From assembly GCA_041601615.1 (NCBI GenBank), contig JBFIHX010000007.1:87805-151804 (forward strand): a DNA stretch of 64,000 nucleotides. Reading direction: 5' to 3'. A program made the translations under genes and the position numbers. Origin of the DNA: Thermoplasmatota archaeon (GTDB lineage Archaea; Thermoplasmatota; E2; JACPAO01; JAHFTW01). Under the pieces are notes generated by a model that saw nothing but the letters and a program-made list of their open reading frames with translations, made no database searches and was not told the origin of the DNA. This document shows, in pieces, positions 35,817-63,411 of the stretch (positions are counted from its first letter, which is position 1; every line of letters begins with the position of its first letter).

Positions 35817-35940
35817 GGAGCCACGATTCTTCGAACACGGACCTAGAGCCACGCGTTGCCCCCGGCGCCTGCAAGTGCCCCCCCTCCGCGTCGTTTGCCG
35901 ATTTTGGTCCCCCAAGACGTCCTCAAACCCGTGTGCTACC

Positions 35941-36045: not shown

Positions 36046-36339
36046 CCCCCGCTCAGCCTTGGCGCTGGCCCCGCTTGTGTCCCCGATTGTGTCCCCGCTC
36101 CCATCCAGGCAGAGGCCCGCACCAGAGCCCACACGCCAGGACACATACACATCTCCCCATCGAACCAATCCATCCATTTGTCGAAGCTTTCGAGCATCAA
36201 TTTTCAAGCAATTTTCGGGCACCGGACCCAAACGCCCAAGGGGCCCCACACACCCACAGGGGACTCCGACAGCCGCACATGTACGGGTCGTAGAATGATT
36301 ATGTCGAACGCCCACCCAATGCACCTTGAGGTGGTCCAC

Positions 36340-47169: not shown

Positions 47170-48008
47170 GCCAACTCCGCAATATATGAACCCACGAGTC
47201 CAGGGACCAAAACCTGGAAGCAGTCTTGCTGATCTCTTGTCAACCTCGGATATACTGCAGTTACAAATGCAGTGAACTCCGGCAGGATGTCGAGGGCTAC
47301 CGCACATTGCCATGCCCGACGTATGTCAAATCCCTGTCGTATCTGATGCTCAACAATGGCTCGACCCACATCGATCTCTGCATCCATCGAAAGGAATTCG
47401 AGCATGATTCGCTCCGAAAAAGGTGTCCGAAATCCCCTGCGGTTCACGGCAGTCCCCCCGATGCGTTCCTCCGCAACGAGGGCAATATCCATCCCTGGGT
47501 CATGCCCCCTCGGCTCACTCGTTAGAGCACCGCCGAGCGGTCCAGCTCGATTGTGTTGGCGCGGCACCAACCACGCCCCATGCCCCTTCCTAGATTCATA
47601 TTCACTATTGAGAACCTCTAGCAATTGCGTCGCAAGGCGGGTCTCGACAACAACGTGCCGCCCTTGGACCCCATCTTCCGACAGGGCGAGATAGGGTGTT
47701 GCGTCCCAGACTACCGTGCGCGCCATTTCCTCCGGGCGCAGATAGGAATGCAAAAACTCGACAAGCCCTTCAATCGGTTCGCCCAGTGCCTCATGAGACC
47801 GAGTTAATGTGTATCGGGCTTTTCCAATTTGGTCGACGACTCCAATCTGAAGCAGTTCCGATAGTCGCCCTCGAAGCGGCCCCGTCGCGGCAGGAGTTCC
47901 CTGTTTTTCCAATTGGTCATGCAATTCTTGGACCGACAATCCTTCCTCTTTGGCCTCGAGCAGCAGGGCTAGGATGTGGTCGCGAAGGCGCAGTATCACA
48001 GCAGTCAT
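47166..48008 (-). CDS. AbiEi-family antitoxin/transcriptional regulator
   Basis: N-terminal wHTH 'LLLEAKEEGLSVQELHDQL' and a C-terminal AbiEi-type domain. The 4-nt overlap with the AbiEii gene is the standard AbiE operon organisation. Confidence 0.7.
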   Translation of the reverse strand: MTAVILRLRDHILALLLEAKEEGLSVQELHDQLEKQGTPAATGPLRGRLSELLQIGVVDQIGKARYTLTRSHEALGEPIEGLVEFLHSYLRPEEMARTVVWDATPYLALSEDGVQGRHVVVETRLATQLLEVLNSEYESRKGHGAWLVPRQHNRAGPLGGALTSEPRGHDPGMDIALVAEERIGGTAVNRRGFRTPFSERIMLEFLSMDAEIDVGRAIVEHQIRQGFDIRRAWQCAVALDILPEFTAFVTAVYPRLTRDQQDCFQVLVPGLVGSYIAELA

Positions 48009-48139: not shown

Positions 48140-49522
48140 TCACCCACCCCAAACCACCACCCCTCCCTCCACAACTTCCCCCAATCCGTCAACGGCCACA
48201 AACCGCACCTCCGTCCCCGCAAAGATGTGCACGCTCCCAGACCAACTGCCCCATCCGTTCCTCGCAAGCGCCTTGGCGCCATGGTCAGGAAGCATCACCC
48301 ACACCTCCTCCACCGGATGATTCCCGACGACGCGGACCTCGACCCACCATTCGTTGATGTTGTTGGAGATTTCAAAGAGGGCGCGGAATTCGGGGTCGCC
48401 GCGTTCGGCGAGGACGCCGGCGATCCAGGCGTGGGCGGCGGGTTTGAGTTGTCCTCGTGCGTCGACGAGTCCCCAGTGTCGTTCCGCGGGTCCGTATCGG
48501 TTGGCGGGGTCCATGGTGGGGGTGTCGCGCCAGGATCGGTAGAGGATGGCTTCGACGCCGGCTTCTTCGAGTGCGTCGAGTCCTGCTAGGAGTTCTTGGA
48601 CGGCGTCGGCTTGGGGTTGGGCAAATTCGTCTTCGGGGTAGGAGCTGAGGGCGAGGTCGGTGAGGATGACGGGTTTGGCAAATAGGCGTTGGAGTTCTTT
48701 GGCGCCTTGGAGGGTTTCTTCGTAGAGGGTTTGGTAGTCGTCGGCGCTGTCGTGGGTGGAGCCTCGGACGGCTTGGAGGCCGATGGCGTCGCTGGCTTCG
48801 GCGGCTCTGTCCCAGGTTGTCCATGCGGCGGGGTTCCAGTTGCCAAAAGAGAGGACGACGCGGGCGGCGGGGTAGCGTTCGTGGAGGAAGTTGGCCATGT
48901 CGGCGAGGCGTCCGTCGAGTTCTTCGTAGGTTTGGACGGTTTGTTTGTTGAATTCGGATTCGAGGAGAATGAGGACGGGTTCGCCCCCCATGTGTTCGTC
49001 GAGGTGGTCGACGAGTTGGCCGGCGAGGGCGTACCAGCCGTGGTTGTCTTTGTAGGCGTCGTGGAGTTCGGACCAGCAGCCGTCTTGGAAGCAGGCGGGT
49101 TGGATGTCGTCGCCCCAGTAGTAGAAGTGGAGGGCGGGGGTGATGTTGGCGGCGCGCATTCGATGGAGGGCTTGGTCGACGGGTCGCCAACCATTGGTGA
49201 GGGTCCAGGCGCCGATCCATTCGGAGGCATAGTCGGGTTGGATGCCGAGGATGGTTTGTTGTTCGAGTGATCCGTGGCTGATGCCGAATTTCATCACGGG
49301 GCCGGGTGGCGAGGTAGGGGTTGGCGGTGGGTTGGGTGGTGTTTGGGGGGTGGGTGGTTGCGCGGGGCCGGGCGTCGGTGTGCCTTGGTTTGGGTCGATG
49401 GTGGGGGATGGCTCGGGGTCGGCTTGGATGGGCCAGAAGCCGGGTTCGTGCCAGAGGGGCCAGGAGGTGGTGATAAGAAATCCCGCTAGCAGGACGACGA
49501 TGATTCCATGGATTGCTTTCAT
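48140..49522 (-). CDS. secreted glycoside-hydrolase-like TIM-barrel enzyme (family unassigned) + PT linker + one C-terminal CBM-like beta-sandwich module
   Basis: Signal 'MKAIHGIIVVLLAGFLITTSW'. 'HFYYWGDD', 'ILLESEFNK' and 'VLSFGNWNP' are shared with the paralog at 52804. C-terminal 'NEWWVEVRVVGNHPV...GWGSWSGSV...VRFVAVDG' is the repeat module. Confidence 0.6.
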   Translation of the reverse strand: MKAIHGIIVVLLAGFLITTSWPLWHEPGFWPIQADPEPSPTIDPNQGTPTPGPAQPPTPQTPPNPPPTPTSPPGPVMKFGISHGSLEQQTILGIQPDYASEWIGAWTLTNGWRPVDQALHRMRAANITPALHFYYWGDDIQPACFQDGCWSELHDAYKDNHGWYALAGQLVDHLDEHMGGEPVLILLESEFNKQTVQTYEELDGRLADMANFLHERYPAARVVLSFGNWNPAAWTTWDRAAEASDAIGLQAVRGSTHDSADDYQTLYEETLQGAKELQRLFAKPVILTDLALSSYPEDEFAQPQADAVQELLAGLDALEEAGVEAILYRSWRDTPTMDPANRYGPAERHWGLVDARGQLKPAAHAWIAGVLAERGDPEFRALFEISNNINEWWVEVRVVGNHPVEEVWVMLPDHGAKALARNGWGSWSGSVHIFAGTEVRFVAVDGLGEVVEGGVVVWGG

Positions 49523-49585
49523 GGCGGCTCAACTCGGGGGGTCGGGGGGGTCGGAGGCCTGGGGCCGTGGGTTGGTGGGAAGGGA

Positions 49586-50821
49586 TTAGGGTGTGTTTTG
49601 GGTGGTGGCGGCGCGTCCGAGCACTTGTTCGGTGGCTTGGGTGATGTGGTCCCAGTTGTGGTGTTGCAGGACGCGGGCGCGGCCTCGTTTTCCCATGGCG
49701 TGGGCTTCGTCGGGGTCTTGGAGGATGGCGAGGAGTTTTTTGGCGAGGTCTTGGGGGTTGCTTGGTTGGGCTAGGAGGCCGTTGTCGCCGTGGCGCACGA
49801 AGTCGGGGATGCCGCCGATGTTGGAGGCGACGACGGGGGTGCCGCAGGCGTTGGCTTCGGCGAGGACCATGCCGAAGGATTCGGCGTCGGTGGTGCTGGG
49901 TAGGGCGAGGACGCTGGCTTGTTGGTAGGCGGCGACGAGTTGTTCTTGGTTGAGTCGAGGGTGGAGGTGGATGGTGTCGCCGCTGGCGTGTGCGAGGCGT
50001 TGGAATTCGGGGAGGCGGTCGCCGGTCCCTACCAATTCGAGGGTGGCGTTGGGGATGCGCTGGCGGATGGTTTCGAAGGCGTGGCAGAGGGTGTCGATGC
50101 CTTTCCAGCGGTAGGATCGGCTGAGGGGGGCGACGAAGAGGATGGAGGGTGCGTCGTGCTTCGTGGGTTTTGATGGGGCTTGCGACTTGGGTGGGCTTGG
50201 TGGGTCGGTGGGCAGGGGAGTGGCGAGCTTGGCGGTGTTGGTTGTGTCGTGGTTGGGGGGTGTGAATTGCTGTGCGTCGACGCCGGGGGGGATGATGGTG
50301 GTGCGGTCGCGGTGGGCGGCAAGGGCGTTGTCGCGCACGAAGGGGCTGACGGCGATGAGGCCGGCGGAGCCGTGGAACATGCGTTGTTCGATAGTGGCGT
50401 CTAGGAGGTGGGCGATGGTTTCGAGGAGGATGTTGCTGCCGTGGAGGCGGCCGGCGTGGTAGGTGGTGACGAAGGGGATGCCTCGGCGGGCGGCTTGTTT
50501 GTAGGCGGTTTCGGCGGCGAAGGGTACGGGGCAGTGGGCGACGATGACGTCGGGGTCGAATTCTTGGATGCCGTGGTCGAGGAGGCGGCGGTAGCGTGGG
50601 TCGATGGGGGTGTGGCCGAGTTCGAGGCGGGCGCGGGTGCGGTGGACGTGGACGCCGTGGCTGGTGCTTCCGGCTTGGTAGCTGGGCAGTGCTTGACGGG
50701 TCATGGTTGCGACCTGGACTTGGTGGCCTCGGGCGGCGAGTCTTGTGAGGATGGCGCGCGCGTAGTGCTCGAGGCCGCCGCCTTCGGGCTCATAGTAGGG
50801 CGTGGCGCAGAGGATGCGCAA
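49586..50821 (-). CDS. family 4 glycosyltransferase (GT-B)
   Basis: 'MRILCATPYYEPEGGGLEHYA' and the E-x7-E region 'DAESFGMVLAEANACGTPVVASNIGGIPDFV' identify GT4. Confidence 0.85.
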   Translation of the reverse strand: MRILCATPYYEPEGGGLEHYARAILTRLAARGHQVQVATMTRQALPSYQAGSTSHGVHVHRTRARLELGHTPIDPRYRRLLDHGIQEFDPDVIVAHCPVPFAAETAYKQAARRGIPFVTTYHAGRLHGSNILLETIAHLLDATIEQRMFHGSAGLIAVSPFVRDNALAAHRDRTTIIPPGVDAQQFTPPNHDTTNTAKLATPLPTDPPSPPKSQAPSKPTKHDAPSILFVAPLSRSYRWKGIDTLCHAFETIRQRIPNATLELVGTGDRLPEFQRLAHASGDTIHLHPRLNQEQLVAAYQQASVLALPSTTDAESFGMVLAEANACGTPVVASNIGGIPDFVRHGDNGLLAQPSNPQDLAKKLLAILQDPDEAHAMGKRGRARVLQHHNWDHITQATEQVLGRAATTQNTP

Positions 50822-52007
50822 GGACAGTCACCTCCGAGGCATGGGGTTGGGGCGGGTTGCCCGATGCGGAGCCGGGTTTGCTGGGGCTTTGGAGGATTTC
50901 TTCGTAGATGTCAAGGAGTCGTGTGGTGACGGCGTTCCAGGAGTAGGTGGCGCGAACGGGGCTGGCGAGGGTTTCGCCGCGGGGGAGTTTGCGGTTGCGG
51001 AGGGCTTCTTGGATGCAGGCGGCGAGGGCGGCGGGGTCGCCGGGGGGTGCGACGAGTCCGCCGACTTGGGCGACGTCGGCGACTCCGGGGAGGGCGGAGG
51101 CGACGACGGGGGTGCCGCAGGCCATGCTTTCGAGAAGCGAGATGCCGAAGGCTTCCTGGCGGTTGATGCTTGGGAGGATGGTGAGGGCGGCGCCTCGGTA
51201 GAGGGCGGGGAGGTCGGTGTCGTCGACGCGGCCTAGGAATCGTGCGGCAACACCGAGGCGTCGGGCGAGTGCTTCGAGGGGTTTGCGAAGGGGTCCGTCG
51301 CCGGCGATGACGAGGGGGGGTGCTTCGGGGATGCGGGCGAGGGCGTGGAGGAGGATTTCGATGCCTTTGTAGGGTACGAGTCGGCCGACGACGAGGAGGT
51401 GTCCGCCGCCGAGGACTCGGCCGAGGGGGTGGAAGCGCTCGGGGTCGATGCCGTTGGGGACGACGCGCCAGCGTTCTTCGGGGATGCTGCGGAGGCTTGG
51501 GGCGCTGCGGCCGTAGGAAAGGGAGCGTACGAGGGTGGTGTGGGCGAGGCGGTAGTTTGGGGGGCCGATGTAGCGGTAGGCGGCGGCGGCGAGGCGGCCG
51601 AGGGGGGTGCCGGGGGCGGGTTCAAAGTGGAAGTCGAGGACGCCGGGGACGCCGAGGGTTGTGGCTTTGCGCAGGACGCCGGGGGTGGTGAATGGGTAGG
51701 TGGCGGCGACGTGGATGAGATCGGCGCTGCGGGGGATGAAGCGGGCAAGATCCGCGACGGGGGCGCGTAGGATGAGGCCGCGTCGTCGTACGCGGACGGT
51801 TTGGACGCCGGATTTCAGTTGGATGTCGTTGCGGTGGGCGCTGGAGCAGACTACGGTGACTTGGTGGCCGCGGGCGGCGAGGCGTCGGGAGACTTCGGAG
51901 AATACGCGCTCTACGCCGCCGACGTGTGCGCCTCGGTCGCCTGGTCGCGTGGGGCCTGGACCGCTGCCGGGGTCGGGGTCGAAGGGCGAGACGAGCGCGA
52001 TGTGCAT
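50790..52007 (-). CDS. family 4 glycosyltransferase (GT-B)
   Basis: Start refined to 'MHIALVSPFDPD'. '...QEAFGISLLESMACGTPVVASALPGVADV' is the GT4 motif. It overlaps the 5' end of the downstream GT4 by about 30 nt. Confidence 0.8.
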   Translation of the reverse strand: MHIALVSPFDPDPGSGPGPTRPGDRGAHVGGVERVFSEVSRRLAARGHQVTVVCSSAHRNDIQLKSGVQTVRVRRRGLILRAPVADLARFIPRSADLIHVAATYPFTTPGVLRKATTLGVPGVLDFHFEPAPGTPLGRLAAAAYRYIGPPNYRLAHTTLVRSLSYGRSAPSLRSIPEERWRVVPNGIDPERFHPLGRVLGGGHLLVVGRLVPYKGIEILLHALARIPEAPPLVIAGDGPLRKPLEALARRLGVAARFLGRVDDTDLPALYRGAALTILPSINRQEAFGISLLESMACGTPVVASALPGVADVAQVGGLVAPPGDPAALAACIQEALRNRKLPRGETLASPVRATYSWNAVTTRLLDIYEEILQSPSKPGSASGNPPQPHASEVTVLAHPLRHALL

Positions 52008-52156
52008 GCTTGTTTCTGGGTGGTGGCGCGAGCATAGGGTTTCAGGGACAGATTGGAGTGTTGCTTGGTTGGGCGGTGGCCCTCGGGGCCGAAAGTTGTG
52101 CCAGTTCGTCCCTGAAATTGGATGGTGGTTGGGGTCGACCATCAAGTCAGGGCCGC

Positions 52157-52663
52157 ATGGCCCCATGGAGCGTGAATCACGTGCGTTCGATAAGCAAAGC
52201 AGGAGAAAATCGGTGTGCGTCGGTTCGACGTGTGACGCTGGCAAGCGTAGGGCTTGGTTTGGCCTTGGCGTTGCTGGGCGCAGTACCCCAAGTCGGGGCG
52301 TCGGCCCCTCCTGCTGCACTCATCGAATTGGAGTGGTCCGAGAACAACCGAGGCGTTGAGATTTTATCAGACGACTATTTATTCTCATTTTTGGCCGAGG
52401 ATTGTGATGGACTCTTCTTTGAAACCTATTGGAGCTTTCCAGGCACCAAAACCTACGTCTTTTTCCTCAATATCCCCATCGTCAAAGTGTGGGTCACTGC
52501 CGGGTGGAATGAGACGGAGACCGGCCCCAGTGGCGAGGCACAGTTGTTTGTGAATGAGGGTGTTGATTGCAGCAAAATTCCGGTGTTCCCGACCATGCTG
52601 GCCGGGGTTGCGGCGGTGGCTGTGGGCGCGGCGTCGTATGCGACGGTCCGTCGCCGAAAGTAG
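52157..52663 (+). CDS. small secreted protein with 'IPVFP' C-terminal sorting tail
   Basis: ATG 52157. The signal region is '...RRVTLASVGLGLALALLGAVPQVGASA'. C-terminus 'SKIPVFPTMLAGVAAVAVGAASYATVRRRK*'. The gene body is locally lower-GC. It is the only plus-strand gene inside a minus-strand cluster. Confidence 0.55.
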   Translation: MAPWSVNHVRSISKAGENRCASVRRVTLASVGLGLALALLGAVPQVGASAPPAALIELEWSENNRGVEILSDDYLFSFLAEDCDGLFFETYWSFPGTKTYVFFLNIPIVKVWVTAGWNETETGPSGEAQLFVNEGVDCSKIPVFPTMLAGVAAVAVGAASYATVRRRK

Positions 52664-52803
52664 GATGGTGCAGCTAGAGGACAGAGCGGGAGAAAGGGTT
52701 CCCACGGAGCCGTTTCCGACCCCGCGGGGAGTGTTTCACACCGGGTTCGTGGTGCTGCCGCCGATCCTGGCGTGAGGGGGAAGAGTGGGCGTAGGATGCG
52801 TTC

Positions 52804-55263
52804 TTAGAACCAGGTGATGGCGCCGCTGATGGCGGTTTGGCCGCTGGTGCTGGTGGCGCGGAATTCCACGACCGAGCCTTTGGAGAGCTTGGTGGAGGTG
52901 GAGTAGGAGTTCCACTGGGTCTCGTCCATGGTGTTCCAGGCGCCGCCGTTGATGCGGGCGTCGACCTTGGCTAAGGGCGCGGTTGCGTCCACGTTGGTTT
53001 CGATCCACCACTTGTTGCCTTGGGTCTTTGGCGCGAAGGTGGCGGTGAACGGCGCGGGGGCTGGTTCGGGGGTGGGCACGGGCACCGGGGTGGGTGCGGG
53101 TTCGGCGCCGAGCCAGGCGTACGCTTGGGAGGTCACGGTTTGTCCGTCGGTGCTGGTGGCTTGGAAGACCACGCTGCTGCCGGGGGCGACGTGGAAGCTC
53201 TTGGCGTAGGTGCCCCAGCTTGTCGCGGGCAGCACAACCGGGGCGCCGCCGTTGACGATGGCTTCGACTTTGGCGATGGTTCCGGTGCTGGTGGCGGTTG
53301 CTTCGACCCACCAGGCGTTGACGTTGGCCGTGGGGGCCATGGTCGCTTGGAAGGTTGGCAGGGTGGTCGTGACGGTTTTGCTGGATGTTCCGGTGAGGCT
53401 GCCGTCGCTGACGGTGAGCTTCACGGTGTAGGTGCCGGGGGCGGCGTAGGTGTGGGTGGCGGTTTTGCCGCCGGCCATGGCGCCGTCGCCGAAGTTCCAG
53501 GTGTAGCTGAGGGCGTCGCCGTCGGGGTCCGTGGAGCTGCTTGCGTCGAGGCTGGCGGTGAGGCGGGCCGTGGTGGCGCTAAAGCGGGCTGTGGGGGCTT
53601 GGTTGACCGGTTCCGGTTCAGGCTCGGGCTCCGGTTCGGGGGCGGGGGTGCTGCCGCCGAGCCAGGAGAACGCTTCGGAGGTGACGGTTTGGCCGCCGCC
53701 GTTGGTGGCACGGAAGACCATGGAGCCCGCGGGAGCGTAGAAGCTCTTGGCGTAGCTGCCCCAGTTGGTGGCAGAGAGCGCGATGGCGGTGCCGCCGTTG
53801 TGGATGGCTTCGACTTTGCTGATGGTTTGATCGCTGCTGACTTGCACGTCGACCCACCATTCGTTGACGTTTTTGGAGGGCGTGAAGTCGGCGGTGAAGT
53901 CCGGCGTGGGTTCCGGAGCAGGAGCGGGCGCGGGCGCGGGCGCTGGAGTTGCGCCGCCGAGCCAGGACATGGCGGACGAGGTGACGGTTGCGCCGCTTGT
54001 ATCGGTGGCTCGGAAGACCATGGAGCCCGCGGGAGCGTAGAAGCTCTTGGCGTGGGTGCCCCAGCTGGTAGCGGATAGTTGGACCGGTGCGCCGCCGTTG
54101 TGCATGGCTTCGACTTTGCTGATGGCGTGGTTGCCGGTGACTTTCACGTCGACCCACCATTCGTTGCTGCCGGAGGACGGCGTGAAGCTGGCGGTGAAGT
54201 CGGTGTTCGGTGTCGGGGGCGTGGTTGGGTTGCCGCCGCTGCTTGGGCTGCCGCGTTCGGCGAGTACGCCGTTGATCCAGACGTGTCCGGCGGGCTTCAG
54301 GTCGCCGCTGCCGCTCCAAGCGATTCCCCAGTGGCGTTCGGCTTCGCCGTAGTAGTTGGCGAGGTTCATGCCGGGGCTGTCGCGGAAGCTGCGGTAGATG
54401 AGGGCCTCGACGCCGGCTTCTTTGAGCTCGCTCATTCCGTCGAAGAATTGGCGCATTTCATTGGCTTGCAGGTCGAGGTATTGGGGCTCGGGGTAGGAGC
54501 TTAGGGCGAGGTCTTGGATGAAGATGGGTTTCTGGAAGAGGTTGTTGAGGTAGTTGGCGTTGTTGACGGTGTCTTCGAAGAGGTTGTTGTAGTGGGTTTG
54601 GCTGTCGCGGGTGGAGCCACGCATGCCTTGGATGCCGACGAAGTCGCTGGCGGCCGCGGTGCGGTCCCAGGTGCTCCAGGCGTTGGGGTTCCAACTGCCG
54701 AGGCTCAAGACAATCTTGGCGTTCGGGTAGCCGGCGTGGAGGCGGTCGGCCATGGTGGCCAGCATGGCGTCGAGGGGTTCGTAGTATTGGACGTCGCCTT
54801 TGTTGAATTCGGATTCGAGGAAGATGACCACTTCGTCGCCGCCCATGCGGCTGTGGAGGTGGTTGATGAGTTGGTCGGCGAGGTTGTTCCAGCCGGCTTG
54901 GTCTTTTTGGGCGCCGTGCAGGCTGCTCCAGCAACCGTAGTTGAGGCAGTTTTGGCTGATGTCGTCGCCCCAGTAGTAGAAGTGGATCGCGGGCGTGACG
55001 CCGGCGTTCTTCATGGTGGTGAGTTGGCTGTCGGGGCTTCCCCAACCGCCGCCGTTAAGCGTCCAGGGGCCGACCCAGAAGGTGCCGTAGTCGGGGGCTA
55101 CGCCGGCATTGGTTTGGTAGCCGATGGAGGCGGCTTCCATGCCGAATCCCATCGTGCCTGGGGATGATGTGGTTGCGCCGACGGAATCGACGACGAGCGG
55201 GAGACCTCCCATAATGAGGCCAAGGCTGAGTATGGCTGTCGCTAGTTTGTTCATATGCAGCAC
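52804..55263 (-). CDS. secreted GH-like TIM-barrel enzyme + 5 tandem CBM-like modules + PKD domain
   Basis: Signal '[22 protein letters not shown]'. It is a paralog of 48140 ('HFYYWGDD', 'FLESEFNK'). Five ~75-aa repeats run 'NEWWVDV.V....ISKVEA.HNGG....[21 protein letters not shown]...G..VTS.A.SWLGG'. The PKD domain is '[10 protein letters not shown]...[18 protein letters not shown]'. Confidence 0.7.
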
Positions 55264-55825
55264 CGATGGCCAGGCGGGTCGGCGGGGAGCCTGTGGAGGT
55301 CAGGTGCTGGTGTTGCACCGTGTTCCTGCCCCGTCTGGACAAAGACCCATTCACCCTTGTGGAATATAGGCCGGCACGGTGGTTGTTAAAGGCGATGAAC
55401 GAAATTTCTTGTTTTGTATAAGAAGTTTTGTTGCATTTTTGGGCCCCTAGGGAGGGGCGGTTCGGAGGGGCATTGGGAGCGTTTCCGGAGGCCTGTATGC
55501 CTTTTTACCTCCCGTTGGGCGTTTGGGCGGGCGGGCGTTTGGGACCGGTTTTTGCCTTTTTGGCGCGAACAATTCGTGCAACAAATCAACCGAACAATGA
55601 TTGGTGTGGATGGGGGGAGTCGCGGCGGCGGGTTGACCGTGCAAAGTGGGCAGGGGCAATCGCTTGATCAATGGAAGGGAGGTGGCGGGAAGATTTCAGG
55701 AAAGGAGCCGGGCTGGGAAGGGCCGGGCAAAGAAAGCGACAAGATCAATGGAAACAAACGGGGGGAAGGGGATGGAGAAAGGCGGGGAAGGGCCGCACGG
55801 GTGGGCCGGCGTCAATGATGGTGGG

Positions 55826-58492
55826 CTAGATCCACACCACCGTTTGGCTGGTCACGACGGTTCCTCCAGTGCTCGTGGCTCTGAATACTACGTTGGCGCC
55901 GTCGGGAACAAAGAAGCTCTTGGCCCAGGTGCCCCAGGAGGTTTTGGGGAGGTTGACCCATGCGCCGCCGTTGACTTGGGCTTCGACGCTGGCGGGTGGT
56001 TGTGAGGAGGTTACGCTCACTTCGACCCACCAGTTGTTGCTTGGGTCACTTGGCTTGAAGGTGGCGGTGAATGCGCCGCCGCTTGAGAGCCAGGTGTAGG
56101 TGGTGGATTTTACGGCTGCTCCATCGGTGTCGGTGGCGGTGAATTGCACTTTGGCACCGGAGGGGACGTGGAAGCTCTTGGCCCAATTGCCCCAGCTTTG
56201 TTTGGTGAGTGCTACGGGTGCGCCTCCGTCCACGGTGGCGGTGACGGTTCCGACGGGGTGGTTGCCGGTCACTTTCACTTCGACCCACCAGTTGTTGACG
56301 CTGCCGGGGACTTGGAAGGTGGCAGTGAAGTCACCAGAGGGCGGGGGAGGAGGCGGGGGCGCGGAGCCGAGCCATTGGAAGGGGTCGCTTGTGACGCTGT
56401 CTCCGACGGTGTTGGTGGCTTTGAAGACCACCGTGCTGCCGGTTGCCACGAAGAAGCTCTTGGCCCAATTGCCCCAGCTTTGATGCGGGAGGTCGATGGG
56501 TGTGCCGCCGTCCACGGTGGCGGTTACACTCGCGATTGCGTGGACACTGGCCACTTCCACTTCGACCCACCAGTTGTTGACGCTGCCAGGGACTTTGAAC
56601 GTCGCTTCGAAGGTGCCGCTGGGTGGCGGAGGCGTGCTAAGCGGCACGCTGCCTTTGGTGTGGACGCCGTCGAGCCAAGTAAACGGTGCACTTTGGCTTG
56701 CAAAGTTACCGGCGTCCATTGCGCGGAATTCGACTTTGGTGCCGGCGACGGTGTGGTGGGAGGAGGTCCAGGCGCCCCAGGAGCTCATGGTCATGGGGTT
56801 CCAGCCGCCGTCATTGATGCGGATGGACATGCCAGTAATCGCGCGCGCCGGGGAGGGGTTTGCGGTCACTTCTTGCCACCATTGGTTGGGGTTTTTGATG
56901 GTGAATGTAGCGTCGAAATCGCCTGTGGGTGGCGGAGTTCCGCCTCCTGCTGTGGGGTACGGCAGGTGGGGCCAGGCGGCGTTGTAGGCGGCGTGGGTGT
57001 CGTAGACGAGGATGGCGCCGCCGCTGACGGCGTTGGTGGCGGCTTCGACGGGCACGATCCATTGCATGGTGCCGGTGTTCCAGAGGTCTTCGACGATGGG
57101 ACCTCGGCTGACTTTCCATGGGGTGGTGCCGATGAAGGTTTCTTTGGCGCCGGTGATTCCGTTGAGGTACCAGATGCCGTCGCCGTTGTGGCCGGGGCCA
57201 TTGGCAAACAGTTCCTGAACACCGTCTTCATCTATGTCGGCAAGCGCCAGGTCCTTGTTGTTCCAGTAGGTGTTCATGGTCTGTTTCCAGACGAGGTTGC
57301 CTGTGGAGTCGTAGCGGTAGAAGTGGGCGGGGCCGGTGATTTGCCAGGCGTTGGTGGGGTCGCCGGGGAAGGGCGGCTTGTGTCCGACGGTGTTCCAGTC
57401 GGCCCAGAATACGTCGGCTTTGCCGTTGCCGTCGATGTCGTACACGATGGGGTGGGTGTAGGTGAGTGGGGCGCCGCCGTTGAAGTCTTGGCGCATCCAT
57501 AGGAGACCGCCGCTGCCTTTGACCACGAACAGCGCCGCGTGGTTCTTGGAAAAGTCGTAGCGGTCGTGGCTGTCGCGGGCGCCGAAGACGATGTCTAGGG
57601 GGCCTACGCCGTCCACTTGGGCGATGGTGGCTCCGACGGGGATGGACGCGGCGCCGAGGTTGTATTGCGGGTGTCCGGCCCAGAATGTCCACTTCGTGGC
57701 GCCGGTTTGGCCGTTGCTGACGGTGACGACGCCGCCGTCGCTGACCCAGACTACTTCGAGGGTTCCGTCGAAGTTGAGGTCGGCTACGGCGGGTTCGGAG
57801 TTGCCGCCACTAATGCAGGTTTTCCACATGATGCTGCCGTCGAGGCGCAGTGCGAAGCCGCCTTTTTCTTCGGTGTAGGCAAGAATTTCTAGGTCGCCGT
57901 CGCCGTCAAGGTCTGCGAGCACGGGTTTGCTGTCCATGCCGGGGTTGGGTTCGCAGTCGTTCAGGCGTCGTTCCCAGAGTTTGGTGAATTGGAAGTGTCC
58001 AGGGTTGCTTGCGCTGTCTTCGTAGCGAAACAGCGTGATGTAGGATGCGGAGTTGGCGACGACCACATGCGGCACGCCGCCTTCGACGAGTACGACTGCT
58101 TCGGGGCCGTTGATGGGGCGGGCTCCCCAGCCTCCCGGGTACTTGGTTTGTAGTTCAGACAGGAGGGCGCCGGTTTTGGAGTCGAAGACATAGACGTAGC
58201 GGTTGTCGTTTTGGACGACGATTTCTTTTTTGCCGTCGCCGTTGAAGTCGAACACTTTGGGGGGTGCTGCGTCGAAGGCTTCGAACGGTACGGTGGGGTT
58301 GGCGCTGGCGGTGTCGATGGTGAGCACGCGAGCGGTGGGCGCGGGTGCTGCTTCTACGCTGGGCACGGGCACGACCACCAACAGTGCGGCGCCGAGCAAG
58401 ACGGCGCAGGCGAGGAGGGTCCATGGAAGTTGGTGCTTGGGAGTGGTTGTTTTTGGGGGGGTTCGGGGGTTCGGTTGCGTCGCGAGCTTCAT
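55826..58492 (-). CDS. secreted FG-GAP/integrin-alpha-like beta-propeller protein + 4-5 C-terminal CBM-like modules
   Basis: FG-GAP Ca-binding loops include 'FDFNGDGKKEIVV', 'LADLDGDGDLEIL', 'VADLNFDGTLEVV', 'VYDIDGNGKADVF' and 'LADIDEDGVQELF'. C-terminal repeats 'NNWWVEVEV...SWGNWAKSFFV..GS.VVFKATN..G..VTS' belong to the same family as in 52804. Confidence 0.75.
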   Translation of the reverse strand: MKLATQPNPRTPPKTTTPKHQLPWTLLACAVLLGAALLVVVPVPSVEAAPAPTARVLTIDTASANPTVPFEAFDAAPPKVFDFNGDGKKEIVVQNDNRYVYVFDSKTGALLSELQTKYPGGWGARPINGPEAVVLVEGGVPHVVVANSASYITLFRYEDSASNPGHFQFTKLWERRLNDCEPNPGMDSKPVLADLDGDGDLEILAYTEEKGGFALRLDGSIMWKTCISGGNSEPAVADLNFDGTLEVVWVSDGGVVTVSNGQTGATKWTFWAGHPQYNLGAASIPVGATIAQVDGVGPLDIVFGARDSHDRYDFSKNHAALFVVKGSGGLLWMRQDFNGGAPLTYTHPIVYDIDGNGKADVFWADWNTVGHKPPFPGDPTNAWQITGPAHFYRYDSTGNLVWKQTMNTYWNNKDLALADIDEDGVQELFANGPGHNGDGIWYLNGITGAKETFIGTTPWKVSRGPIVEDLWNTGTMQWIVPVEAATNAVSGGAILVYDTHAAYNAAWPHLPYPTAGGGTPPPTGDFDATFTIKNPNQWWQEVTANPSPARAITGMSIRINDGGWNPMTMSSWGAWTSSHHTVAGTKVEFRAMDAGNFASQSAPFTWLDGVHTKGSVPLSTPPPPSGTFEATFKVPGSVNNWWVEVEVASVHAIASVTATVDGGTPIDLPHQSWGNWAKSFFVATGSTVVFKATNTVGDSVTSDPFQWLGSAPPPPPPPSGDFTATFQVPGSVNNWWVEVKVTGNHPVGTVTATVDGGAPVALTKQSWGNWAKSFHVPSGAKVQFTATDTDGAAVKSTTYTWLSSGGAFTATFKPSDPSNNWWVEVSVTSSQPPASVEAQVNGGAWVNLPKTSWGTWAKSFFVPDGANVVFRATSTGGTVVTSQTVVWI

Positions 58493-60021
58493 GCTGCATC
58501 ACCTGTCTTTGTGGCGGATGCTCCGAGGTCGAAGACCAGCACCGCGCCGTTTCGTGGGCCGTCGATGGGCTCCACGGGAAACACGAGGCTCATGCTACCA
58601 TCGTGTTGAAGATCGAACAGTTGCGGACCGCGCATGAGCTTCCACCCGCCTGCTGCAAGGTACCCTTCTTTCTTGCCGGTGGCGCTATCGAGGCGCCAGA
58701 TGCCGTCTCCGCCGAGGCCTTCGCCGTTGACGAGCAGTTCCATTGTGCCGTCGCCGTTGGTGTCTGCCGCGGCGATGGCTTTGTTGGACCACCAAGCGTC
58801 TAGGGTTCGCACCCAGACTTCCTCGCCGTCGGCGGTGAGTCGAAAGGCGTGGGCGGGGCCGAGGTGTTGCCAGTTGCCGGGCCAGTGTCCGATGGTGTTC
58901 CAGTCCATGCCGAGGATGTCGGTGGCGCCGTCGTTGTCGATGTCCATGGCGAGGAGTGGGGTGTAGCTCATGGGGTTGGCCCATTCGGGTTGCTTCATCC
59001 AGACCAGTTCGGATTTCCAGGTCTCGGGGTTTTGGCGCACGGCAAAGATGGCCATGTGGTAGTCGCTGAAGGCGTCGGGGTCGTCGCTGGGGGCGTGGCG
59101 GGCGGTGAACAGGATTTCGAGGGGGAGTTTGCCGTCCAGGTCTGCCACGGTGGGTGCGACGGGGATGGATGCAGGCGCGATGCCGTAGCGTGGGTCGGCG
59201 GCGTGAAAGGACCATTGCGGTGCGCCTGTGGCGCCATCGAGCACGGAGAGGAGGCCGTCGTCGGAGGCGAAGATTGCTTCGAGGTCGCCGTCGCCGTCAA
59301 GGTCGGCTACCACGGGGCTTGCGTTGCCGCCGGCCCAGCAGTGGCTCCACCTGGTTGTGCCGTTGGATTCGAGGGCAAAGAATCCCACTTGTTCCGTTTG
59401 TACGAGCACTTCGAGCGCTCCGTCGCCGTCAAGATCGGCAAGCACCGCGCCTGCGTCCATGCCGGCACCTGGATAGCAACCGTCCATGCGTACTTCCCAG
59501 GCTTTGTCAAATTGGAACGTGCCGTCAAGGTCGGTACCCTGAAAGGTCCAGGCGGTAACGTAGGCGGCGGGACTGGTGGCCAGGAGGGCAATGGGTCCAT
59601 CGGGTTCCAATCGTCCAGCGGCGACTTGGTTGAGGACATTGTCGACGTGCCAGGAGGGAGGAAATCGTAGCGGCAGCCGGGCGAGCACTTGGCCGGTGTC
59701 CGAGTCGAAGACGTAGACGTGGCGGTCACGGCTTGCAGCGACCAATTCGTCGCGGCCGTCCCCGTCCAAATCGATTGCGGTCAAGGCGGTGTCGATGGAG
59801 CCGGGCCATGCGTCCAGGCCGGACGTTGCGGGGTCGCCAAAGGCGCCGAGCCAACGGGCTTGCGAGCCTGCGCCGACGGACCAGCCATCCAAAACCGGGG
59901 CGGCGACAGGATCGGGGCCTTCTGCGCCGGTCTCGCGGCCACCTCCTTGGAGACATCCGGCGATGGCGGCGCTGCCCACAAAGCACGCTGCAAGGACCAT
60001 GCGGCGGGTGGACCGGCTCAT
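58489..60021 (-). CDS. FG-GAP beta-propeller lipoprotein (paralog of 55826 without CBM modules)
   Basis: Start refined to M179: 'MSRSTRRMVLAACFVGSAAIAGC' is a Tat-like RR plus lipobox. Loops include 'IDLDGDGRDELV', 'LADLDGDGALEVL', 'VADLDGDGDLEAI', 'MDIDNDGATDIL' and 'ADTNGDGTMELL'. Confidence 0.75.
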   Translation of the reverse strand: MSRSTRRMVLAACFVGSAAIAGCLQGGGRETGAEGPDPVAAPVLDGWSVGAGSQARWLGAFGDPATSGLDAWPGSIDTALTAIDLDGDGRDELVAASRDRHVYVFDSDTGQVLARLPLRFPPSWHVDNVLNQVAAGRLEPDGPIALLATSPAAYVTAWTFQGTDLDGTFQFDKAWEVRMDGCYPGAGMDAGAVLADLDGDGALEVLVQTEQVGFFALESNGTTRWSHCWAGGNASPVVADLDGDGDLEAIFASDDGLLSVLDGATGAPQWSFHAADPRYGIAPASIPVAPTVADLDGKLPLEILFTARHAPSDDPDAFSDYHMAIFAVRQNPETWKSELVWMKQPEWANPMSYTPLLAMDIDNDGATDILGMDWNTIGHWPGNWQHLGPAHAFRLTADGEEVWVRTLDAWWSNKAIAAADTNGDGTMELLVNGEGLGGDGIWRLDSATGKKEGYLAAGGWKLMRGPQLFDLQHDGSMSLVFPVEPIDGPRNGAVLVFDLGASATKTGDAA

Positions 60022-60973
60022 TCGGGTCCACGCCCCTTCTTGGGCACCGGTTCTTCGGCCCAGCGCAAATGTGCGGGCACTGCATGCGTGCCGAGTCCGC
60101 CCCCTCCGGGTGCCCCGTTTCCTCGGACCATGCGGGGAGTGTTCGGGTTGGTTGCGGGGGCACGGGGCCGGCGTTCGGGTCGCGTGGTGCGTGGTAGCGA
60201 ACGGAACCGGGAGCGCACGAGGCACCATCCGATGCGGGCGCCGTCGCGGGTGGCGGAGAGTTTGGTGGTGCCGGCGCGGGGCAGGTAGTCGGCTTGGATG
60301 TGGGCGATGCGCAGGTGCTGCCGGGAGGCGAGGGCAAACAGTTCGGCCTCCAATTCGAAGCCCTTGCTTTCGAGCGGCATGTGCAAGAGCACGTCGGCGC
60401 GGAAGGCCCAGAGGCCGGTGCAAAGATCCGGGCAGCGGCGGCCGTAGAGCACTGCGGCGCCCGCTGAGAGTAGCGCGTTGCCCACTTTGTGTAGGCCAGA
60501 CATGGAGCCGGGCAGCGGGCGTCGGTCTCCCATCACCACATCTGCGTCGCCCCAAGCCAGTGGTTCGAGAACGCGCGGGATGGCGTCGGCGGCGTAGCTT
60601 CCGTCGGCGTCGAGCATCACGACGTAGTTGCAGGTAAGCCCTTGGCGGGCGTTGCGGACGGCGGAGCCTTTGCCATCGGATTCGTCGGGGATGACCGTTG
60701 CGCCTTCAGCTCGCGCGATGTCGGGCGTGCCGTCGTTGCTGTGGCCATCAAGTACGATGGTTTCCACTTCGTAGCCCAGTGCTTCTAGGGTGGCGACCGG
60801 GATGGCGCGCAGCGTGGCTCGGATTGCTTCGGCCTCGTTTTTGGCGGGCACAACGATGGTAACCTTGCCCGCTTTGTGCGACGATGTTGTCGGCGCCGAT
60901 GAGTCGCGTGTGCGCGTGTTGCGTTGCGGTCCGGCCCCGGGTTTGACCTCCATTGCAAAGCCAGTGTCGCTCA
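60018..60973 (-). CDS. family 2 glycosyltransferase (Dpm1/DPG-synthase-like)
   Basis: 'VTIVVPAKNEAEAI', 'IVLDGHSNDGT' and 'MLDADGSY' are GT2 motifs. The start is refined to MSDTGF. An ATGA overlap with the propeller gene gives translational coupling. Confidence 0.75.
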
Positions 60974-62794
60974 TTGCGGCACCTCCGAGATTCGATAGGT
61001 CAAGACACGAGAATGGGCAAGACCCATGCCGCTGCATAGCGAGTCTACGGGTTGCCAAGGCTCTTGATGCAAGAACGATAGGTCAAGGCCCGGATTCTCC
61101 AGCACGAGGTAGCGATCCACGAGCACCAGCACATTCCTACCTCCAAGAATTTGGTCCGTGAGCACCTTGTTTCGGTGCGGTTCGTCCCAGTAGAAGCCTT
61201 GGCTTGGCCAGACGTTCAATGGCTCGGGAGCAAAGGCCGCGAGGACCAATTTGGCTTGCCAGCCGCCCGTGATGATGATCGTGGAACCGTCTTGTTCCTG
61301 GGCCAAGCCGCGCAGCGCCTCGAACTCGCAGTCCGGGTAGAGTCGATACCAGCCACCTTCGTATTCGGGCGGCGAAGCGGCGTAGACTGTGCCCGTGAGT
61401 GCCACGGTCAAGAACAAGGAAAGCACGCCGCCCGCCATGGCAGAGCGTGCCCCATTTCGAGAGCCGGAAACATGACCCTTGTGCAGGGCTGCGTTGTTCC
61501 ATGCCCGCACAAATGTCCGGACGGCGGCACCCGCGAATGATCCGGCAAGCAGAACGAGTCCGATGCCAAGGTACGCGGCGGTGCGGTGGGGCCAGTATTC
61601 GCTGTTGAATGGATTGTGCACCACGAAGGGCAACGTCGCCGCCGCCAATCCCGCGCCCAGCAAGGCAGCCGGCGTGCGCACAAAGGGCAGCGCCACGAGG
61701 CCAGCCCCGGCGAGAACAAGAATTGGCCACCCCATCATGCGTGGCAAATCAACCTGGTCCGGCATTCCGGCTCGAATGGCAGGCACCATCACCACGACAA
61801 TCGCCACTGCAATGAGGCTGCTCAAGACCACCTTTGAAGGTGCTCGCGCAAGCCACGAACCGATGCCATTTCGTGCACGCTCTAGGGGCCGTTGCAAAGC
61901 CACGAGGACGACGCCGAGGCCTACGCTGGTTCCACTGACGGCAAGCGCGATGCGATCCAGGTCGGCATCTAGTGTGGGCACATTGATGTCTTGGAAACCG
62001 AGGCCACAATCTTCCCAGCATGCAAACACCGCGACTCCAAGCGTCATGCCGCTCACAAGCAGCACAGCACCAATGCCGGCGATGGTGGTGCCTACGGCCG
62101 ATCGCTTCTGCGCCGCCGCACCCGCACCAGCGCCAATACTAGGACCCGCGTTGCTGCGCTGCCGATTCGTGGGTGCGTGCACCAACAAAGCCAGCACCGC
62201 CGTCGCGAGAATCGCCGGGCCAAGAATGCCCAATACCCACGGGTGGGAGACAATCAAAAACAACGAGAAGGGCGCGGCGACCCCGAGCCACACGAACCGG
62301 CCCCGCATCAGTTCCAATAAGGCAAAGAACAGGAAGGGCAACAGCGCCAAGTCAAGAGCCGTCGGTGCCATCATGGTGGTGCGAAAGATCGCCTCTGGTG
62401 CGACCGCGAAAGCCATGCCACCTGTGAGCCCAGCAGCGAGGCCGCCCCATCGCGACAACAGCACGGCACATCCAAGCACTCCGACGGCGCCAAAAACCGC
62501 TGGCCCGACACGGAAAATATCGTACAAATCGAGCCCAGTGTACACCCAAGCGGCGCCCAGCACTGCGTGAAGCCCGGGCGGATAGGTGGTGCCGGTGGTG
62601 TACAATGGTTCAATGTTTCCGTCCGCCAAATGGCTGCGCGTGAGCGCCATGTGGGTGTATGGATCCTCAGCCGGAACTGCCGGCGACGAGAGCGGGTCCT
62701 GCAGCCGCAGTACGAGGCCGAGCGCGACCGTGGCCGCCAAAGCCACGAGCATGACGGCTGTGGCAAGATGATGCACCGTAGAATCCCTGGTCAT
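60971..62794 (-). CDS. large polytopic membrane protein, GT-C-fold glycosyltransferase-like (PMT/ArnT-like) candidate
   Basis: Start refined to 'MTRDSTVHHLATAVMLVALA'. An N-terminal lumenal loop 'EDPYTHMALTRSHLADG' resembles the D-E/D-x-Y motif of PMT/ArnT-type enzymes. It has 12 or more TM helices plus a C-terminal soluble domain. Confidence 0.45.
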   Translation of the reverse strand: MTRDSTVHHLATAVMLVALAATVALGLVLRLQDPLSSPAVPAEDPYTHMALTRSHLADGNIEPLYTTGTTYPPGLHAVLGAAWVYTGLDLYDIFRVGPAVFGAVGVLGCAVLLSRWGGLAAGLTGGMAFAVAPEAIFRTTMMAPTALDLALLPFLFFALLELMRGRFVWLGVAAPFSLFLIVSHPWVLGILGPAILATAVLALLVHAPTNRQRSNAGPSIGAGAGAAAQKRSAVGTTIAGIGAVLLVSGMTLGVAVFACWEDCGLGFQDINVPTLDADLDRIALAVSGTSVGLGVVLVALQRPLERARNGIGSWLARAPSKVVLSSLIAVAIVVVMVPAIRAGMPDQVDLPRMMGWPILVLAGAGLVALPFVRTPAALLGAGLAAATLPFVVHNPFNSEYWPHRTAAYLGIGLVLLAGSFAGAAVRTFVRAWNNAALHKGHVSGSRNGARSAMAGGVLSLFLTVALTGTVYAASPPEYEGGWYRLYPDCEFEALRGLAQEQDGSTIIITGGWQAKLVLAAFAPEPLNVWPSQGFYWDEPHRNKVLTDQILGGRNVLVLVDRYLVLENPGLDLSFLHQEPWQPVDSLCSGMGLAHSRVLTYRISEVPQ

Positions 62795-62961
62795 GATGGT
62801 CCGTTTTTCCTTCGCGGCCTGCCTAGTTGCGCGTGTTGGGACAACGCTGCGGCAAAAACGGGACCACGGGCCATGGGAGGAACGGCCCCCATCTGCCTTG
62901 CCCCGCCGGCACGAATCGTCGTGGCACAAACCTCAACCTCCTCTAGCTCCGAACGTCCATC

Positions 62962-63411
62962 ATGGCCAGTTCCCTCGCGTCCGCTTCCAAAACAACATCG
63001 CAGACCGCTCCCGCCTGGCCCCTGCGGCTTGCTCAATCCACGGATTTGTTGCTAGCACTCGCGGTCGTCGCAGGTGCAGCAGCGGCTCGTTCGTTGCCCG
63101 GCGGAAGCACGCTTCGACTCGTATTGACGCTACCGGTGATCCTGTTTGTTCCCGGCTACCTGTTGCTCCAGGCGCTGTTGGTTCCCGTGCGCCCCGGTGC
63201 CGGCCACTTGCTTCAAACTCTGCTCGCCGTCGGCATCAGCTTGCCTTTGGTGGGATTGTTTGCCCTCTCCACGTCCCTTGTGGCAGGCGGCTTTCGACCC
63301 ACGCCAATCGTGCTTGCCATTTCGCTTGGGTGCCTGACACTGGCGGCGGTGGCGTTGGTGCGACGATTGCTCCTACGAGCCCCGGCCGAGGCAGCTGGGG
63401 GCTTGGCTTGA
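62962..63411 (+). CDS. small membrane protein (3-4 TM), function unknown
   Basis: Hydrophobic helices 'LLLALAVVAGAAAA', 'LVLTLPVILFVPGYLLL', 'LLAVGISLPLVGLFAL' and 'IVLAISLGCLTLAAVAL'. Confidence 0.4.
   Translation: MASSLASASKTTSQTAPAWPLRLAQSTDLLLALAVVAGAAAARSLPGGSTLRLVLTLPVILFVPGYLLLQALLVPVRPGAGHLLQTLLAVGISLPLVGLFALSTSLVAGGFRPTPIVLAISLGCLTLAAVALVRRLLLRAPAEAAGGLA

Follow-up and report, generated by a model that had tools for sequence, protein, structure and literature searches.

Does a gene cluster that combines glycosyltransferases with secreted, glycosidase-like proteins serve to build the surface of the cell, or to feed on polysaccharides from outside? This question is raised by the genes at positions 48140-62794 of a 64,000-nucleotide stretch of Thermoplasmatota archaeon DNA (assembly GCA_041601615.1, contig JBFIHX010000007.1, positions 87,805 to 151,804; hereafter the window), in which an earlier note, made from the sequence alone, had suspected a system that builds and remodels an extracellular or cell-wall glycan. 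We lean, by a modest measure, toward the reading that these genes belong to a conserved cell-envelope polysaccharide island whose products would make, bind and trim a surface beta-glycan; that this polymer is specifically cellulose-like is a narrower claim, which we hold with less confidence. The build-and-remodel idea gains support from a gene order kept in at least 10 species, from a BcsA-like synthase gene adjacent to the cluster, and from a protein in which a BcsA-like enzyme is fused to a TIM barrel.

The cluster comprises eight minus-strand genes and one small plus-strand gene, and is thus almost entirely on one strand, as the earlier note had it. Its genes are real and archaeal. Homologues with a named source come mostly from Thermoplasmata or Thermoplasmatota metagenome-assembled genomes (MAGs), and the window also contains a RadA gene (Pfam Rad51, E=2e-85), a pyruvate:ferredoxin oxidoreductase and an archaeosortase-like gene. 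The exact products of 510 amino acids (aa) for the propeller PropB and of 607 aa for the membrane protein GT-C are on record as called genes in public assemblies, the barrel protein GH_A is identical to a called gene of a public assembly (P0031), and the 405-aa gene call of the glycosyltransferase GT4b is present on an identical contig (L001). The genes for GT-C (60971-62794), a small glycosyltransferase of family 2 (GT2; 60018-60974), PropB (58489-60021) and the second propeller, PropA (55826-58492), are joined by three exact ATGA stop/start overlaps, at 60971-60974, 60018-60021 and 58489-58492, each preceded by a purine-rich stretch, which bears out the translational coupling proposed for propeller, GT2 and GT-C.

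When genomes of species representatives were scanned with the barrel alignment, 47 loci were obtained, onto which all components of the cluster were mapped (loci and contigs are given L numbers). In at least 10 species-level genomes we observed a recurring order: a divergently oriented DUF1616 gene, then GT-C, GT2, a propeller, a propeller with CBM63-like modules, a TIM barrel with CBM63-like modules (one to three copies) and two GT4 genes. The closest relative, L013, matches the window gene for gene. Look-ups of GT-C homologues returned six places, two of them different assemblies with the same protein; GT2 and one or two propellers lie directly downstream in 5/5, the larger propeller has two to four CBM63-like modules, the barrel gene comes next in all but one, and a GT4 gene or pair is found in 4/5. 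The DUF1616 gene itself (62962-63411, plus strand), encoding a small multi-pass membrane protein and oriented away from the GT-C operon, is found at this position in at least nine related loci; PF07760 is on record for a protein identical to its product, which is also similar to the DUF1616 protein of L008. On the other side of the cluster, a plus-strand trio at 36953-41557 consists of an unknown 699-aa open reading frame (ORF), an EpsD-like GT2 and a type I phosphodiesterase of the alkaline-phosphatase superfamily. The phosphodiesterase occurs near barrel/GT4 loci in eight relatives (L012, L021, L022, L024, L031, L033, L038 and L040), the trio GT2 in six and the unknown ORF in four. Since the trio recurs in relatives, the conserved island probably spans from ~36.9 kb to beyond the end of the window; the 15 kb first assigned to it was too small, leaving out the DUF1616 gene and the BcsA-like synthase on one side and the stretch down to ~36.9 kb on the other.

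The synthase gene was reached through the DUF1616 look-up, which led to a contig (L060) that is 100% identical to window positions 56558-64000 and holds the whole gene, ~480 bp past DUF1616. Its last 36 codons and stop lie at 63890-64000 on the minus strand (window-equivalent span, 63890-65941), so the window edge cuts the synthase gene. The 683-aa product is 64% identical to the L008 synthase, contains QFHRW and DAD motifs, and matches the NCBIfam CelA model TIGR03030 with E=4.3e-56 (190 bits, below the 699-bit cutoff); its best PDB matches are BcsA structures (4hg6/5ej1, E=1e-37), and a PilZ domain was not detected in it. A 649-aa GT2 that adjoins DUF1616 and GT-C in L008/L009 and L030 has its best score with the model of the cellulose synthase catalytic subunit (E=1.8e-63), far above PgaC/NodC and under the equivalog cutoff. 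BcsA-like GT2 genes are present within 10 kb in 6/47 barrel loci (L020, L025, L026, L030, L038 and L057), and also in L008 and L009, two assemblies reached through the GT-C homologue. The fusion protein is P0227, a 1047-aa member of the representative library in which residues ~82-681 form a BcsA-like processive GT2 and residues 729-1045 the TIM barrel.

Among known systems, the bacterial Bcs locus (BcsA synthase, glucan-binding partner BcsB and endoglucanase BcsZ) comes nearest. Both have a processive GT2 with a QxxRW motif, here nearest to BcsA/CelA, and in both the synthase has secreted carbohydrate-binding proteins and a glycanase-like enzyme encoded next to it; in one relative the synthase is even fused to the glycanase-like domain. 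In contrast to Bcs, the host is an archaeon; BcsB, BcsC and PilZ were not found by family searches; the glycanase-like enzyme is a TIM barrel without a described family rather than GH8; and the binding modules are CBM63-like. The island further adds GT-C, a dolichyl-phosphate-hexose (Dol-P-hexose) synthase-type enzyme, two GT4s, two FG-GAP propellers and DUF1616.

These linkages bear directly on the main rival explanation, that of a foraging secretome. Its modules would bind to insoluble polysaccharide or detritus outside the cell (for instance cellulose of plants or microbes, in soil or a sand filter), the barrels, proteases and phosphatases would be exoenzymes acting on food particles, and the glycosyltransferase genes would lie nearby through the clustering of genes for surface and secreted products. 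We regard foraging as unlikely. It does not account for a four-module PropA that is translationally coupled to GT-C and GT2 and conserved in at least 10 species, for a barrel fused directly to a BcsA-like synthase in P0227, or for the BcsA-like synthase adjacent to the cluster in this genome, and the locus showed no genes for sugar uptake or downstream catabolism. One homologue record, moreover, is titled Candidatus Aenigmatarchaeota MAG; the Aenigmatarchaeota are a reduced-genome DPANN lineage.

The modules that both readings invoke are copies of a single repeat. A repeat profile run against the six-frame translation of the window found exactly nine copies, one in GH_A (48149-48391), four in GH_B (53959-54201, 53659-53901, 53110-53355 and 52807-53049) and four in PropA (56672-56920, 56369-56614, 56087-56332 and 55829-56071, separated by Pro-rich linkers), with nothing more up to E=10 and no copy in PropB. 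The unit is ~82 aa long and the maximum is four per protein. The earlier note had counted at least 11 copies of ~75 aa; its arrays of up to five tandem modules are reached only by counting in the PKD domain of GH_B (53362-53604, PKD_4 7.1e-23), and its description of propellers carrying modules is right for PropA and wrong for PropB.

Its tentative comparison of the repeat to expansin domain 2 (D2), or CBM63, stood up to profile comparison. The NCBIfam model expansin_EXLX1 is matched over positions 105-179 of 194, which correspond to domain 2, by GH_B (E=1.1e-15) and PropA (3.8e-8); the scores are below the whole-protein cutoff, consistent with the absence of domain 1. With a 49-copy profile of the wider family, the best PDB matches are expansin D2 domains (4js7/4jcw, E=1.4e-5, then 9ms5, 7wvr and 2bh0), and hhalign against three D2 fragments gives a probability of 96.3% (E=1.5e-9). 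Individually, 18/49 copies match Pfam Expansin_C (best 3.9e-7), the best of the window's own copies reaching E=0.008, under the Pfam threshold. Repeat positions W15, W16 and W47 (the W-W pair and the W of 'SWG') align with W125, W126 and Y157 of Bacillus subtilis EXLX1 (BsEXLX1), and are aromatic in 95%, 98% and 97%, respectively, of 231 distinct copies. In BsEXLX1 these three residues stack on cellohexaose, and the protein also binds peptidoglycan tightly (PMC5072189). On these alignments the repeat is homologous to expansin domain 2 and keeps its aromatic triad, and carbohydrate binding is predicted for it.

The likeness to the expansins (BsEXLX1, PDB 2bh0/4fer; 4jcw/4js7) thus extends to profile homology over ~70 residues and to the two adjacent Trp and third glucan-stacking aromatic, and ends there. 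We considered whether the repeat proteins are true expansins and rejected this identity: neither Pfam nor NCBIfam gave a match to the double-psi beta-barrel (DPBB) of expansin domain 1 in GH_A, GH_B or PropA, and because there is no domain 1 these proteins are not expansins. They differ also in that the modules form arrays of up to four, on glycosidase-like barrels, propellers, proteases and a phosphatase, and in that they occur in archaea, where a survey of expansins reported none (10.1101/637728). A literature search returned nothing on expansin in Thermoplasmatota.

A different interpretation of the same repeat would make it a protein-protein or generic adhesion beta-sandwich that is expansin-like by descent only, alongside a barrel that is inactive or not a glycosidase. 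The sub-threshold Expansin_C scores of the window's copies are in its favor, as are weak matches to Big_7 and to a biofilm-associated surface protein, and the barrel's want of the canonical Asn-Glu and Glu catalytic pair. Yet the repeat was classified with expansin D2/CBM63 and not with Ig-like adhesion domains, its aromatic platform is at least 95% conserved over the 231 copies, and hhalign pairs it with D2 at the high probability given above; together with the near-invariant carboxylates of the barrel and the repeated fusion of the barrel to established CBM60 modules (both below), this leads us to consider the adhesion interpretation very improbable.

Beyond the window, the repeat occurs in 79/258 barrel-family proteins, with up to four copies; a word-indexed search with its profile yielded no more than six short proteins. 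In relatives it also forms the C-terminal appendage of S8 proteases (L010/L023, L020 and L029; Peptidase_S8 was Pfam-confirmed twice) and ends a purple acid phosphatase (L022; Pfam Metallophos / purple acid phosphatase) and a protein of L048 that has an HExxH zinc-protease-type motif and no Pfam match. Its presence on proteases and a phosphatase suggests a general targeting, anchoring or docking module rather than a glycanase-specific one. Proponents of foraging could claim the same S8 proteases and purple acid phosphatase, as well as the fact that CBM63 and CBM60 are classic plant-cell-wall-targeting modules, CBM60 being found in 31 of 48 long members of the barrel family.

Is the barrel an enzyme, and of what kind? 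It is carried by two minus-strand genes. GH_A (48140-49522, 460 aa) has, judging from its translation, an N-terminal transmembrane (TM) anchor, a Pro/Thr-rich stalk of ~50 aa, the barrel (48395-49297) and the single CBM63-like module. In GH_B (52804-55263), a signal peptide and a (beta/alpha)8 barrel, clan GH-A-like, together take up 54247-55263 and are followed by two CBM63-like modules, the PKD domain and two further CBM63-like modules (52807-54201). The two barrels are 54% identical and hence paralogues, as had been noted from the sequence. Neither the two window proteins nor 49 family members matched any Pfam or NCBIfam family, the sole trace being an EndoS TIM-barrel match (E=0.03) in one member; PDB sequence profiles gave marginal or chance matches only, and a full-library profile search provided no bridge to a known family, with only strong family members among the matches listed. 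The family is small, with 399 representatives at E≤1e-3 among 1.84 billion.

The AlphaFold model, obtained with 48 homologues as alignment, is a (beta/alpha)8 barrel (pLDDT 95.7, pTM 0.93). Its top 50 Foldseek matches in the PDB are named as xylanases, mannanases/mannosidases, lichenases and beta-galactosidase, assigned to GH5, GH10, GH26 or GH164 where labelled and with GH42 also among the families matched, all of which we take to belong to clan GH-A; the match probability is 1.0 and E goes down to 4.7e-9, but identity to any solved member is 10-14% and the TM-score ~0.6. As modeled, the barrel is GH-A-like in fold and lies outside any described Pfam or NCBIfam family. The earlier description of these proteins as glycoside hydrolase-like therefore holds for the fold, whose matches were clan GH-A glycoside hydrolases only and no non-glycosidase, and fails for membership in a described family. 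Note that fold neighbors which are xylanases, mannanases and glucanases are also what a foraging enzyme would have.

Conservation was measured over 209 near-complete domains. E120, E122, D221, R261, E279, K293 and several Trp are 99.5-100% conserved (the carboxylates are E150, E152, D251 and E309 in GH_B numbering). E120 (99.5%) and E122 (100%) lie right after strand 4 in the motif L-E-S-E-F-N-K, preceded by Leu and Ser, not by Asn; D221, on strand 7, is invariant (209/209), and a weak profile match (E=0.3) pairs it with the nucleophile Glu of a GH53 galactanase; E279 follows strand 8. A nucleophile Glu at the end of strand 7 was not found in any of these domains, the invariant Asp standing in its place. 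What the barrel shares with clan GH-A (GH5, GH10, GH26 and GH53) is the (beta/alpha)8 fold and the carboxylates at the C-terminal ends of strands 4 and 7, whereas it has E-S-E-F-N-K for N-E-P, Asp for the nucleophile Glu, an extra invariant Glu after strand 8 and a conserved Cys pair. Carboxylates this conserved point to selection on the barrel as an enzyme, for which catalysis is predicted. Among the 48 long family members, PKD domains are found in 20 and Expansin_C in 5, beside the CBM60 modules mentioned above, and by association with CBM60 and Expansin_C the barrel may be carbohydrate-active. A GH18-like, substrate-assisted mechanism, suggested by the resemblance of E-S-E to D-x-E and by the EndoS trace, was considered and not adopted, one weak match being insufficient.

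The remaining enzymes of the cluster are glycosyltransferases, and the GT2, GT4 and GT-C content announced by the earlier note was recovered in full, GT4 twice and GT2 by Pfam, GT-C by AlphaFold and Foldseek. The 607-aa GT-C (60971-62794, minus strand) gave nothing in Pfam or NCBIfam and only marginal or chance matches to PDB sequence profiles. Its AlphaFold model, built with 55 homologues (pLDDT 87.3, pTM 0.90), has GT-C enzymes as all of its top 19 Foldseek matches in the PDB (STT3, PglB, AglB, ArnT, AftA, ALG12, AftD and ALG9; E down to 6e-9), and as modeled this membrane protein has a GT-C fold, that of an STT3/AglB-like, DUF6541-related glycosyltransferase. Its homologues are from Thermoplasmatota, some of them carrying PF20176 (DUF6541), on which a literature search returned nothing. 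The family has an invariant A-E-D-P-Y-x-H-M loop after TM1, with E43, D44 and H48 invariant.

The best fold matches of GT-C are STT3/AglB/PglB (GT66), and its acidic E-D-P-Y-x-H loop resembles their catalytic first loop. Unlike them, it has no WWDYG among the invariant residues of its family, in which a conserved G-G-W-Y-R-L-Y follows the last TM segment; the family consensus does not keep the single Y-W-D of the window's GT-C, the C-terminal domain is small, and no solved structure is matched at the level of sequence. We therefore rejected an oligosaccharyltransferase identity: lacking WWDYG, GT-C is probably not a sequon-directed N-oligosaccharyltransferase.

GT2 (60018-60974, minus strand, 318 aa; Pfam Glycos_transf_2 6.6e-18) matches NCBIfam AglJ at 1e-47 (163 bits, under the 325-bit equivalog cutoff) and the Dol-P-hexose transferase model at 2.6e-30 (105 bits, under the 375-bit cutoff), and its best PDB matches are the Pyrococcus furiosus dolichyl-phosphate-mannose (Dol-P-Man) synthase 5mlz (8.4e-7) and ArnC. 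With AglJ, Dol-P-Man synthase and ArnC as its nearest relatives, it is of the polyprenyl-phosphate sugar synthase type; by these scores it is related to AglJ and the Dol-P-hexose transferase without being an equivalog of either. The two GT4 genes, GT4a (49586-50821, minus strand, 411 aa, TTG start; Pfam Glycos_transf_1 2.6e-38) and GT4b (50790-52007, minus strand, 405 aa; Glycos_transf_1 1.2e-34, Glyco_transf_4 1.4e-18), overlap by 32 nt and exceed the Pfam gathering score for both Glycos_transf_1 and Glyco_transf_4 (131.7/90.4 bits for one gene, 119.8/68 bits for the other).

A small polyprenyl-phosphate-sugar GT2 coupled with a GT-C for use outside the cell recalls GtrB/GtrC, Ppm1/PMT, AglJ-AglD/AglS and CsbB/YfhO. 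Unlike the Gtr systems, no GtrA match was found here, DUF1616 being no more than a candidate flippase, and unlike these two- and three-component glycosylation systems the pair is co-translated with two beta-propellers. The likeness nevertheless brings in the second rival, a dedicated protein or lipid glycosylation system, in which GT2 would make Dol-P-hexose, GT-C would transfer it to surface proteins or a lipoglycan, and the GT4s would build the core, along the lines of Ppm1/PMT or AglJ/AglS, or of the mycobacterial PimA/PimB/Ppm1/MptA. Acceptors would be the Pro/Thr-rich linkers or the IPVFP-tailed proteins described below, with barrels and modules mere substrates or neighbors. The kinship of GT2 with AglJ and Dol-P-Man synthase and the fold of GT-C are what one would expect from such a system, as are the Pro-rich linkers in GH_A, GH_B and PropA and the adjacent archaeosortase system. 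It leaves the BcsA-like adjacency and the synthase-barrel fusion unexplained, however, and the missing WWDYG of the GT-C family counts against it.

So does the content of N-x-S/T sequons. GH_B and PropA have none, against 8.1 and 7.1 expected from shuffles (P≤2e-4), and are thus not N-glycosylation substrates. The same depletion is seen in the multi-repeat proteins of relatives (L007-L036; 25 observed vs 121 expected) and in the repeat copies alone (52 vs 153), which suggests selection against N-glycosylation, or constrained Asn contexts. Taking both sides together, we find a dedicated glycosylation system less probable even than foraging.

Both propellers belong to the FG-GAP type. PropA (55826-58492, minus strand) comprises a signal/anchor segment and an FG-GAP beta-propeller (56963-58492; Pfam FG-GAP_3 2.6e-17), followed by the four CBM63-like modules (55829-56920), and PropB (58489-60021, minus strand, 510 aa; FG-GAP_3 6.4e-19) begins, by its translation, with a signal that contains RR and an A-G-C site resembling a lipobox. 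FG-GAP_3 scores are 63.6 and 68.7 bits against a cutoff of 26.9 bits. The two are paralogues, as stated earlier, with 42% identity over 430 residues (E=1e-105). About eight D-x-D-G-like motifs can be counted by eye in PropB; a stricter regular expression finds five in PropA and six in PropB.

How might these components work together? In our working model, the BcsA-like processive GT2 would polymerize and export a beta-linked, cellulose-like glycan, while the two cytoplasmic GT4s would build a lipid-linked primer or side chain. The AglJ/Dol-P-Man-synthase-like GT2 would load dolichyl phosphate with a hexose on the inner side of the membrane, and the coupled STT3-like GT-C would use such a lipid-linked donor outside to decorate or extend the surface glycan, as its presumed acceptor. 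The propellers, in fixed translational coupling with the glycosyltransferases, could handle or scaffold the polymer outside the cell, PropB held at the membrane by its lipobox and PropA held on the glycan by its four CBM63-like modules. The barrel proteins, membrane-anchored GH_A and secreted GH_B, would be clan GH-A-like retaining glycosidases or transglycosylases with a trimming role like that of BcsZ in bacterial cellulose systems, and the CBM63-like modules would dock their proteins on the flat face of a beta-glycan through the W-W-W/Y aromatic platform.

Several points weigh against this make, bind and trim model. Everything in it comes from computation, which is why our confidence stops a little above even. 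With a CelA score of 190 bits, far below the cutoff of 699, the synthase could make a beta-glycan other than cellulose. Without the Asn-Glu motif of clan GH-A, and with Asp at the position of the nucleophile Glu, the barrel may work by a different mechanism or may be no hydrolase at all. We know of no role for FG-GAP propellers in glycan synthesis. Modules on S8 proteases and a phosphatase fit anchoring to the cell's own coat and attachment to external particles equally well. Finally, most barrel homologues are not beside glycan-synthesis genes, which foraging would predict: 25/47 barrel loci of the species representatives have no island glycan-synthesis homologue within 10 kb, and three looked-up barrel homologues sit among housekeeping genes. 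In the other 22/47 some such homologue is present within that distance, the linked copies being mostly closer homologues.

A bolder form of the make, bind and trim model, which we put forward as a tentative possibility, would have the cell cover itself in a self-made cellulose-like beta-glucan coat, with expansin-D2-type modules as the universal non-covalent anchor that displays glycosidases, proteases, phosphatases and propellers on it. If true, this would be an archaeal counterpart of display on secondary-cell-wall polymers through S-layer homology (SLH) domains, or of cellulosome-style display, and in the GT-C/GT2/propeller operon one would have a new type of machine for handling polymers outside the cell.

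Set against the known systems, three elements are new: a GH-A-like family without description, archaeal stand-alone CBM63-like modules, and a conserved GT-C/GT2/propeller operon. An expansin-type domain is abundant in one archaeal lineage, where it lacks the catalytic-like half of expansins and is reused on many secreted enzymes, and the barrel is a candidate new glycoside hydrolase family with an unusual Asp at the nucleophile position. The conserved linkage of barrel, synthase, GT-C and propeller offers a genetic handle on the envelope or matrix composition of uncultured archaea, and the island bears on whether archaea make cellulose-like polymers.

Some features of the locus lie between or beside these genes. 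PropA and GH_B are separated by a 562-bp spacer (55264-55825) with two conserved blocks, seen on alignment with the orthologous spacer of L007. Within the block at 55328-55392, which is probably GH_B's own promoter, a TATA-like sequence, CTATATTCC (55356-55369), occurs for the only time in the window and lies ~95 nt upstream of the start of GH_B. The second block, near 55500-55545, reads GTCCCAAA..CCCAAA.GCCCAAC.GGAGG. A plus-strand ORF in the spacer (55414-55818) was considered as the 'embedded' gene of the earlier note and rejected, its translation being low-complexity and without family match; the real one is at 52157-52663. Between positions 36000 and 60000, GC skew is very strongly tied to the coding strand: it runs at about -0.33 to -0.39 over the plus-strand genes (36-44 kb) and at +0.15 to +0.39 over the minus-strand genes (48-60 kb), so the coding strands are markedly C-rich.

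The gene at 52157-52663 (plus strand) encodes a small secreted protein of 168 aa that ends in IPVFP, a TM segment and RRRK. It is indeed compositionally distinct, as had been said of it, with a G+C content of 56% against 62-70% in its neighbors, and its L007 orthologue keeps the same tail. Three plus-strand genes in the window (43139-43786, 45141-45962 and 52157-52663) encode proteins that end in IPVFP, ~20 hydrophobic residues and RR(K/Q), and the first two flank the archaeosortase-like gene (44110-44994, plus strand), which scores 89.8 bits against ArtC (cutoff 100) and passes the exosortase/archaeosortase signature (44 vs 23 bits). The tail has IPVFP in place of PEF, and the set resembles a PVF variant of the PEF-CTERM/ArtC sorting system, in which the tail would be the archaeosortase sorting signal.

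Between GH_A and this IPVFP/archaeosortase block lies a minus-strand patch (46093-48008) with an AbiEii toxin gene and its upstream partner, of 52-55% G+C against ~63% nearby. The closest relative, L013, has no homologues of the patch, which were found only on the identical contig L001; the patch appears to be an insertion specific to the lineage. A plus-strand ORF at 35875-37092 ends in a different anchor-like tail, APGPGAALTFGALLAIAALVTRRRLG, with a marginal MYXO-CTERM match (E=0.05).

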